From Cirrosporium novae-zelandiae (lineage: Eukaryota), in the NCBI GenBank assembly GCA_026023565.1, contig JAPETS010000010.1:124001-188000 (forward strand): DNA of 64,000 nt, read 5' to 3'. A program made the translations under genes and the position numbers. This document shows, piece after piece, positions 49,584 through 52,597 of the stretch (position 1 is its first letter; each line of letters starts with the position of its first letter). The notes under the pieces are model-generated. The model was given only the letters and a program-made list of their open reading frames with translations, made no database searches and was not told the DNA's origin.

Positions 49584-51705
49584 CTAGATCGTCACCCCGT
49601 TCATACCATTCGTAAGCTCTCCATCAACTGCATCGTTAGCCAACACCTGCTTCTTCATAACCTGATCAAGGACACCGGCACTTGCGGCGACAAATCCCAA
49701 ATAAGGCATGCTTGGTTTCAGGACACGGCTAAGGTATTCCGGATGAAACTGAACACCAACAAACCAAGGATGATCCTTCAGCTCAAGGATCTCCATTCTT
49801 TCACCCTTATCATCCTTGCCAATGAAGGTTAATCCAGCTTTGTTCAACTGATCGACATAGCTTGGATTCACCTCATATCGGTGACGATGACGTTCTAATA
49901 TTGACCCCTTGGAGGAACCGTAGAGTGCTCGTAGTTTAGACCAAGACGAATCCGGTTGCCATTCTGTTGGACGTACACCCAACCTCATCGTGCCACCGAG
50001 ATGCTCCTTGTCAATTTCGGGCATGAAAATCACAACTTTGTGTTCAGCCTTAGAATTCAATTCTTCAGAATTCAACTCTTCAGAAATCAACTCTTCAGAA
50101 CATGCATTTTGGATACCACAAACATTCCGCGCATATTCAATCACGGCGATTTGCATGCCCAAACAGATTCCAAGATATGGAACTTTGTTTGTACGAGCCC
50201 AATTCGCAGCCTTGATCATGCCTTCCGTGCCTCGTAGCCCGAAGCCTCCGGGTACGAGGATTCCTTGGGCAGTGCAAACGGTGTGCCAGGCTTTATGATA
50301 ATCCCCCGCCGCGTTTTCCTGCGTGATAGGCTCTAGGTGAGTAGCATCAACCCAAACCAGATTAAGCTTCCGTCTGCAACTCATGGCGGCATGCTCAAGA
50401 GATTTGATGACAGAGAGATAAGAATCTTTCAAATTCGTATATTTGCCAACTAGGGCGATGGTAACGGTATCGAAAAGCCGTGTCTGTGAGGTAGTAAGAG
50501 TTGTCCATTGCCTCCAAATATCATGGCCCTTTGCTACGAGTGTTGGAGGGATAGTCAGAGCGTTAAGCTTGAGCGATTCATTAAGAAGGTTGATCATTCC
50601 CTGCTCCTCGAGAAGTAGGGGGACATGATAGGTGCTCTCTACATCGTGAACCGCCAATACCTGCTCAGGCGTCACTTGACAGAACATGGCGATTTTGTTC
50701 GTAGTGGCCTTTTCCAAGCTCTGGCTGCAGCGACATGCGATCTGAATGAAGGCTTAGCGACTACTATTTGGCGAGAACATCTAGATATACTCACTAAATC
50801 CGGGCTTAAGCCGGCTGTATAATGGTTAGCATTGATTTGAAACTATAATTAGCAAAGAGGTTATAACCTACCTGAGCGTACGTCCCGGATCGCTTGTTGG
50901 GTTGGCTTGGTCTTTTGTTCATCGTTGATGACGGGCACTAACGATACATGGATCTGCATGAAATTGCCTGCACCAACTCTTAACCGCAATTGTCTCATCG
51001 ATTCAACGAATGGTCCACTCTCGATATCACCGACAGTACCTCCGAGTTCGATGATGCAGGCATCAGGCTCCTCGTTGGTCTCATCCACTGGAATCCTGGC
51101 TACCCGCTCGATCCAATCTTGGACTGCCCCTGTCAAGTGGGGCACGACCTGAACGGTGTGACCAAGGTATTCACCTCGACGTTCCCGTTCAATAACGTGC
51201 ATATATATTTTCCCGGTTGTGATATTATTCTCCCGAGTCAAGGTGATGTTCAAGTATCGCTCATAGTTTCCAAGATCAAGGTCAACTTCCCCTCCATCAT
51301 CGAGAACAAAGACCTCCCCATGTTCGGTAGGGGCCATGGTACCGGCATCGACGTTCATATAAGGATCGATCTTGATTGATGAGACGTGCTGATAGAGTCA
51401 GCAAAAATCGAAGCTTTGACGTTCATGATGAACATATCTTAAGCCCAATGGTCTTCAGCAACAGACCAGTAGAAGAGGCTAAGAATTCGTAAGTGATGAC
51501 ATAGACTATCTGCACACTCAAATTATTCATACCAATGACACCCTTCCCAATACCGCTGATCACACCTTGGATTTATTAGACATGGTCCTCGATAATAACC
51601 TAAGATGACCAAGAGAGTGGCATACCTCCAGATACTAGATAAGAGTCAGCGACGGTGGGGAAGTGGAAATAGAGACAAAAGATCCTCACCTAAAACATAC
51701 TTCAT
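49584..51705 (-). CDS. URA7: CTP synthase, 6 introns including a 9-nt microexon and an AT-AC intron
   Basis: [78 protein letters not shown]. Confidence 0.98.
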
Positions 51706-52597
51706 CTTGGCGATTTTGATAGATAATCCTGAAGCTATAACGAGTGTTTAGAGAGCTTTAGGTGCCTTTCCTGGCTTTGGCCAGGTGGGATTTCGAAAAT
51801 AGAAAATTTTTGGTGATGGCGAGTATTAAATATTACCGAAACACGTCTAATCGCGATTAGCTCCCACCCCACGCTGGCCCCAAAATAAGCAGAACTCACG
51901 AACTTGGATTAGTTATATATTCCCAAAAAATTCTAATATGACAATTACAATTAACCGGACTATACTTTGCTCAAAAATGATTTTTCGGAGGCCGAAGGTG
52001 AGTCGTATAACTTATTTGAATATGTATCCACGACAGCCTCCCCAGGGGAAAAAACAAAAAAACAAAATTGTGAGTCCCACCTCCCCACCTGATTCCTGGC
52101 GCGTCATCTGCTATTAGTTAAAACATTACACCATTAATTTCTACCTACTTCAATTTTTATATTGGACCGTTTAGGACTCGACTTCAAAGACAATAGTACC
52201 ATCCATGTAGTAAACCATTGGACATCCTTTCATTCCTCTTTGTTAACCACTTACTCTCATCTACTGTCGTTACCTAGGTGGATCGTAGTCATGTACAGTA
52301 CAGTATACAAGAGATTAGGTCCAAGTGAAATCAGGAAGTCGCAACAAATATTAAATATAGATTCTTATTTTATGAATAAACGTGCATAGTACACGGTGAA
52401 TATCTAGAAAGTGCTAGAGTTTCAAGTATCCGAGTTTTCATCCGTCTGGACTTAAAATCATAGTCCATCGGTGATTTGCCCTACCAATCCGACGAGGAAC
52501 CTTTGTAATACCATCGAAGAAATTGAAATCCATGAATGGCTCCTTTTTCACAGGATATAACCAATCCTAAAAGTACGCCTGGATACCGCCAAGGACT

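Follow-up and report, generated by a model that had tools for sequence, protein, structure and literature searches.

The fourth intron of the CTP synthase gene of Cirrosporium novae-zelandiae, a Xylobotryomycete, is a genuine U2-type AT-AC intron. It lies in the 64,000-nucleotide stretch of DNA that was analysed here (the window) and is probably an obligate, constitutively spliced intron that was gained, or converted to its present ends, once in an early ancestor of the Pezizomycotina and has been inherited since. The original prediction had described a rare U2-type AT-AC intron. The type stands, while the depth was underrated: the intron appears to be ancient, is common to at least six classes of Pezizomycotina including the Xylobotryomycete and is no oddity of one species.

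The CTP synthase intron and its orthologues

The gene that harbours the intron is the URA7 orthologue of the organism (Table 1), and both the CTP_synth_N and the GATase domain of its product were matched by Pfam. The glutaminase domain contains a short repeat, three copies of a SEEL-like peptide (50057-50101, minus strand). On the minus strand, intron 4 (51437-51386) reads ATATGTTCATCATGAACGTCAAAGCTTCGATTTTTGCTGACTCTATCAGCAC, is flanked by ...GGG CTT AAG and GTC TCA TCA ATC AAG and ends in CAGCAC. Retention leads to GLK-ICSS-stop, that is to four codons followed by a stop, and excision yields the full CTP synthase of 596 residues; the insert must be removed, as had been claimed. All GT/GC..AG pairs from intron 3 through exon 5 were enumerated, and every in-frame pair loses exon 4 or much of exon 5. 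Splicing by GT-AG or GC-AG ends was therefore rejected, in line with the earlier statement that no such donor keeps the frame.

Table 1. Features of the CTP synthase gene and of two further AT-AC introns of the C. novae-zelandiae genome; plain positions refer to the window
Feature	Position	Strand	Remarks
CTP synthase gene (URA7 orthologue)	49584..51705	minus	ATG at 51705, stop ends 49584; 7 exons, 596 aa
GT-AG introns of CTP synthase (five)	51689-51635, 51625-51566, 51532-51479, 50871-50815, 50794-50742	minus	
Intron 4	51386..51437	minus	52 nt, phase 0 after Lys33, AT..AC ends
5' splice site AAG/ATATGT	51432..51440	minus	U2 consensus but for +1 A
Branch site GCTGAC	51397..51402	minus	branch A 13 nt from 3' end; placed by consensus
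CAG 3 nt upstream of acceptor, skipped	51389..51391	minus	
3' splice site CAC/G	51385..51388	minus	
Exon 4	51438..51478	minus	41 nt
Exon 5, CTP synthase N-terminal domain	50872..51385	minus	Pfam CTP_synth_N matched from profile position 33
Leader motif	51762..51789	minus	C-run, then inverted repeat CCTGGC-N4-GCCAGG, then GGCAC; candidate element, separate from intron
AT-AC intron in Fet3-like multicopper oxidase (L129)	G000:C74:406154-406203	minus	47 nt, ATAAGT..TAC, phase 1
AT-AC intron in GND1 (L130)	G000:C85:737145-737205	plus	58 nt, ATAAGT..CAC, phase 0

The exact site of cutting was read from orthologues. The JGI open reading frame P0073 tiles 612 of 614 residues on the locus L017, where it passes from Lys to Val by skipping exactly ATAAGT..CTAC; since its contig (2,112 nt) is shorter than the genomic span (2,204 nt), P0073 is a spliced cDNA. 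For P0072, 589 of 589 residues tile on L017 as well, and for the Thermoascus model P0005 the figure is 99.8% on L036. Furthermore, the uninterrupted Logan reading frames P0173 and P0175 read GLK/VSSIK at the junction and are 100 and 99.8% identical, respectively, to a Botryosphaeria dothidea model whose translation runs on into the AT donor. On the strength of these orthologues, above all the cDNA-type frames on L017, we infer that excision in C. novae-zelandiae also takes place at AT..AC.

Metagenome contigs were scanned for YAS followed by the first part of exon 5, a pattern that accepts YAG and YAC equally and is thus neutral as to the ends, and that is blind to intronless alleles, to AAG or AAC acceptors and to genes with a differing exon 5 motif. 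The scan yielded 103 loci, 20 of which were set aside: 18 intronless prokaryote-like or animal-like loci, L103, which is cut short and ends in CAC, and the unclear L035. The latter is a CTP synthase-like, non-fungal-looking gene in which an unexplained insert with a terminal TAG stands ahead of the same Val codon. In the remaining 83 loci exon 4 is present and is followed by a phase-0 intron at the shared site; its ends are AT-AC in 82 cases, GT-AG in one and mixed (AT-AG or GT-AC) in none. These loci comprise 56 unique introns in 35 clusters, and 34 of these clusters are AT-AC. Identical ends at an identical site in 82 of 83 fungal introns argue against a chance occurrence. Lengths range from 49 to 69 nt, and the acceptor is YAC/G in all AT-AC orthologues, the Y having been required by the scan itself. 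The site is without an intron in seven animal-like or other eukaryotic loci, and no fungal locus was found in the genome and viral contig collections searched.

Best hits and a quick, midpoint-rooted tree (26 cluster representatives and one outgroup of at least 250 residues, together with 39 named proteins) placed AT-AC loci next to Tuber, Pyronema, Trichophaea, Cadophora, Amorphotheca, Thermoascus, Exophiala, Lasallia and Clohesyomyces, genera that we take, from their names, to represent Pezizomycetes, Leotiomycetes, Eurotiomycetes, Lecanoromycetes and Dothideomycetes. Loci of Sordariomycetes, yeasts or basidiomycetes were not recognised among those scanned. The intron also leaves its mark on annotation, as gene models of this essential enzyme are broken by it: of the 308 CTP synthase proteins compared, 129 show the intact junction and 24 contain translated intron sequence, at the donor side (K then I) or at the acceptor side. 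Read-through at the acceptor appears as H or Y before V, corresponding to CAC or TAC, and Q occurs at that place in none of the 308.

The splice signals were compared with those of introns 2, 3 and 4b of the same loci (78 introns after removal of two mis-parsed rows), the 35 AT-AC introns including that of the window. G at +5 and T at +6 occur in 35/35 AT-AC introns versus 38/78 neighbours (p 5e-9) and an exact CTGAC branch site in 25/35 versus 21/78 (p 1e-5), both p values being overstated because the lineages share ancestry. Of the 35 donors, 33 have A at +3. A CTRAY branch site is likewise present in 33/35 introns, and branch site and intron end are 10-14 nt apart throughout the 35, a spacing for which testing showed no significant tightening relative to the neighbours. 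The earlier view that donor and branch site are U2-like, the donor differing from the U2 consensus at +1 only, thus holds for the orthologues in general. Donor variants ATTAGT, ATTTGT and ATTCGT in L036, L038, L039 and L085 indicate that position +3 may vary; +5G and +6T never do. In the lichen-like lineage L027, intron 2 of the same gene is GC-AG. The codon for Lys33 is AAG in 34/35 cases compared with 30/35 and 27/35 at nearby Lys codons, a weak bias.

U1, U2 and U6 genes with ordinary pairing regions are present in the genome, the U1 matches lying below the family cut-off, and U11, U12 and U6atac gave no match in a genome search in which the controls were silent too. Two U6 genes (L003 and L004; G000:C63:774556-775075) are arranged in tandem 400 nt apart and have different 5' ends, the second (L004) being without the usual 5' stem region. 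The minor spliceosome is reported absent from the host lineage in the available text of PMC10639083 and PMC2846911. It would then be the major spliceosome that removes the intron in C. novae-zelandiae, with U1 and U6 reading the near-perfect remainder of the donor AAG/ATAWGT and U2 recognising CTGAC, a strong branch site situated 10-14 nt before the intron end. During exon ligation the two terminal bases of an intron form a non-canonical pair, in which A-C is able to take the place of G-G (PMC11585973; PMC1557818). Pairing of the first A with the last C would favour the AC over the nearby AG of CAG, and the strong flanking signals may compensate for the mismatch at +1.

Persistence, regulation and the 5' leader

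The simple reading of this distribution would place the origin of the intron near the base of the Pezizomycotina and date it to several hundred million years before present. The sole GT-AG version, L077, has a relaxed donor (GTGCGA) and groups near Dothideomycetidae with the AT-AC loci L025, L045 and L029 (SH-aLRT 100 in the midpoint-rooted quick tree); parsimony points to an apparent double reversion. In Penicillium (P0186, P0189) and in Mycosphaerellales-like fungi (P0268, P0271, P0277), gene calls made on long genomic contigs without regard to introns cross the junction uninterrupted, indicating that the intron was lost at least twice. Its persistence elsewhere may mainly reflect an evolutionary trap, in which a return to GT-AG needs two changes and passes through poorly spliced intermediates; the only ways out would be precise loss of the intron or, rarely, both changes together.

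Long-term maintenance of AT-AC ends in 34 of 35 clusters could instead be due to selection for slow splicing. The intron would then be kept because it throttles CTP synthase, either by retention followed by an early stop and decay, or by translation from a downstream Met without the N-terminal nucleotide-binding loop. We consider both this throttle and its route rather unlikely. AT-AC splicing is less efficient than GT-AG splicing in yeast and human constructs (PMC1557818, available text), and retention always stops or shifts the frame, none of the 21 unique AT-AC introns of 3n length being stop-free; however, stop-free 3n introns number 0/9 compared with 4/26 in the neighbours, which is no clear difference. 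Intron 3 is absent in 4 of 26 scored lineages that retain the AT-AC intron, in loci selected for having the latter, and some gene models start at a downstream Met, though these are most likely prediction failures. Orthologous AT-AC introns have neither a conserved interior (score -0.254 versus -0.272 when shuffled) nor a conserved fold (mean z -0.37), the z of -2.6 for the window intron alone not being shared by its orthologues. The other splice signals are driven to strong consensus, as expected under selection for efficient splicing, and the intron was lost in two large lineages, Penicillium and Mycosphaerellales, and apparently reverted in one. A rate-limiting role of the intron in CTP synthase expression, as originally proposed, is thus unsupported. 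The lack of a conserved interior or fold, together with the losses and the apparent reversion, is more readily reconciled with a trap than with a switch.

A more plausible candidate sensor resides in the 5' leader. At 41-74 nt before the ATG, a pyrimidine tract that closes with a C-run is followed by an inverted repeat, both in the window and in 19 of the 30 clusters whose leader could be read; one false hit was removed from this count, and the rate in shuffled sequences was 0.054. The motif is absent in Pleosporales-like and Pezizomycete-like loci. Within it, 79% of cells pair. No covariation above shuffles was detected and RNAalifold gave no consensus; instead of a hairpin, the element may thus be a sequence motif of DNA or RNA. 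No Rfam family matched it. In one case, the cDNA reading frame P0073, the sequence diverges from the genome exactly at the C-run, suggesting that the transcript starts there; the non-genomic end is presumably adaptor. Yeast URA8 has been proposed to sense CTP by start-site choice at an oligo-C start site (PMC8923462, in the text available). By analogy we hypothesize that the leader motif may be a CTP-sensing start-site element, and it would be a better candidate sensor than the intron.

Further AT-AC introns in the genome

A strict AT-AC pattern gave 10 matches over the C. novae-zelandiae genome versus 6 in the control, and three of these matches restore conserved proteins: CTP synthase, a Fet3-like oxidase (L129) and 6-phosphogluconate dehydrogenase, GND1 (L130). 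Relaxed patterns gave 19, 6, 6 and 84 matches compared with 21, 10, 15 and 142 in the controls. No further convincing case emerged from 114 loci screened by open frames and by eye, a procedure that could miss micro-exon cases. One candidate, L148, was rejected, as it probably lies upstream of the start of its gene. Contigs C35 and C47 are identical at the same coordinates (L152/L154, L170/L182), suggesting a duplicated contig in the assembly.

The oxidase intron directly precedes a copper-binding motif of the enzyme (DNP-G site). At this site NP is followed by D in 15 of 150 cluster representatives, and 12 of these continue as D-K followed by S, L, F or Y, as G/ATAAGT predicts. Where the next exon is visible in shifted form, the residue in front of it is H or Y in all six of these proteins and Q in the single G-type row. 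One of the read-through proteins is named Lepraria neglecta. GT-AG and intronless forms also exist at the site. These read-through signatures at the protein level suggest that the oxidase AT-AC intron may be widespread in fungi.

The GND1 intron is directly followed by a 19-nt micro-exon. Of 119 other protein hits, 51 of which are short intron-unaware calls, 116 cross the site uninterrupted and three start just at it. This intron thus looks lineage-specific and newly gained, which argues that U2-type AT-AC introns still arise. The public C. novae-zelandiae models of both enzymes start downstream of their AT-AC introns, that of GND1 just after the intron and that of CTP synthase at a downstream Met. 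No paper on the oxidase or the GND1 intron was found in the literature searched.

All three introns would depend on A-C pairing at exon ligation, and joint tuning is therefore possible. U2-type AT-AC introns might form a small, recurring, long-lived class in filamentous ascomycetes that acts as a coordinated splicing throttle on nucleotide, iron and NADPH metabolism beside the CTP sensor in the leader, in which case one shift in the stringency of the second step of splicing could tune the supply of all three together. We regard this composite proposal as distinctly doubtful.

Origin of the intron ends and comparison with known systems

Alternatively, the intron could descend from a minor (U12) AT-AC intron that came to be removed by the major spliceosome once the minor machinery had disappeared in Dikarya, its ends being left unchanged. 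Although AT-AC ends are typical of the minor class, and minor introns are present in early-diverging fungi and were lost in Dikarya according to the accessible part of PMC10639083, we judge this very improbable. Not one of the 55 unique AT-AC donors reads ATATCC, as in the U12 donor RTATCCTT, and a CCTTRAY-like word, as in U12 branch sites, occurs in one of the 55 introns and is absent from that of the window. The seven animal-like or other eukaryotic loci are intronless at the site, the apparently lineage-specific GND1 intron indicates that AT-AC ends need not derive from a minor intron, and phase 0 is disfavoured for minor introns (PMC10639083, same part). We therefore retain the single gain or conversion of a U2-type intron as the preferred reading.

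The acceptor could in principle be the upstream CAG, so that an AT-AG intron would be cut and a histidine added. A CAG is present, its use keeps the frame, 8 of 34 AT-AC clusters likewise have an AG 3 nt before the AC, and a His stands at this place in animal-like sequences. Yet an AG is found elsewhere in 7 clusters and is absent between branch site and AC in 19, the intron of L017, in which the AC is used exactly, has no AG after its branch site, and no intact junction with an inserted His occurs among the 308 proteins. Skipping of the CAG, as foreseen at the outset, is well founded, and AT-AG cutting is hardly credible.

An assembly error or a dead gene can be dismissed: besides the window gene there is a second genomic match (L002, G000:C83:130486-130725, minus strand), but this is a broken piece of exon 5 (243 nt, 94.7% identity) that lies in low-complexity DNA and is disrupted by a stop and a frameshifting 4-nt insertion, which leaves the window gene as the sole intact copy found; the remaining reading frame of the latter is intact, both intron ends are conserved in other fungi, and a Logan contig of DNA run X1 (depth 327, spanning 51296-51900) shows 0 differing letters and 0 gaps and thus no G donor at 51437, which excludes an assembly slip, X1 probably being the source run and no independent sample.

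The class to which the intron belongs is known. New are the oxidase and GND1 introns and the conserved leader motif. No paper on the CTP synthase intron was found in a search that covered neither subscription journals nor supplements, so that a listing in some table is possible, and "CTP" is absent from the main text of PMC3033335, PMC7072748, PMC10639083 and PMC4324775. The intron offers a natural, obligate test case of A-C terminal pairing, otherwise known mostly from engineered yeast introns. It is kept in most of the filamentous ascomycete classes sampled, and natural loss and apparent reversion alleles allow comparison. An old question thereby becomes testable, namely whether U2-type AT-AC introns are dying relics, as suggested in the available text of PMC1557818, neutral traps or throttles.

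U2-type AT-AC (type II) introns have been described as a very rare class, with 24 in five genomes; animal examples are those of SCN4A, SCN5A and TAF2 (PMC1557818, available text). The CTP synthase intron resembles the animal ones in its AT..AC ends, an otherwise strong U2 donor, its obligate nature and its conservation across distant species. It differs from them in being short (49-69 nt), in interrupting a core nucleotide enzyme and in residing in a lineage reported to be without the minor spliceosome; its donor is ATATGT or ATAAGT, whereas ATAAGT is given as the consensus of the class in the consulted part of PMC5029451. U12-type AT-AC introns, as portrayed in portions of PMC2846911 and PMC10639083, share only the terminal dinucleotides with the CTP synthase intron, which has neither the ATATCC donor nor the U12 branch consensus, is in phase 0 and belongs to a host reported without U11/U12. 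In Saccharomyces cerevisiae, RPL30 contains an AT-AC intron as another natural case in an ascomycete without a minor spliceosome. To judge from the available text of PMC5029451, however, that intron is nested in a normal intron, has an atypical donor and gives a minor product amounting to 1-2% of mRNA, while the full CTP synthase can be made only if its AT-AC intron is removed. A parallel in setting is found in xylanase genes of filamentous fungi, for which AT-AC II introns, presumably removed by the major spliceosome, have been hypothesised (PMC1557818, same text). These concern a different gene and were hypothesised only, whereas the CTP synthase intron is conserved across classes and has cDNA-type support.
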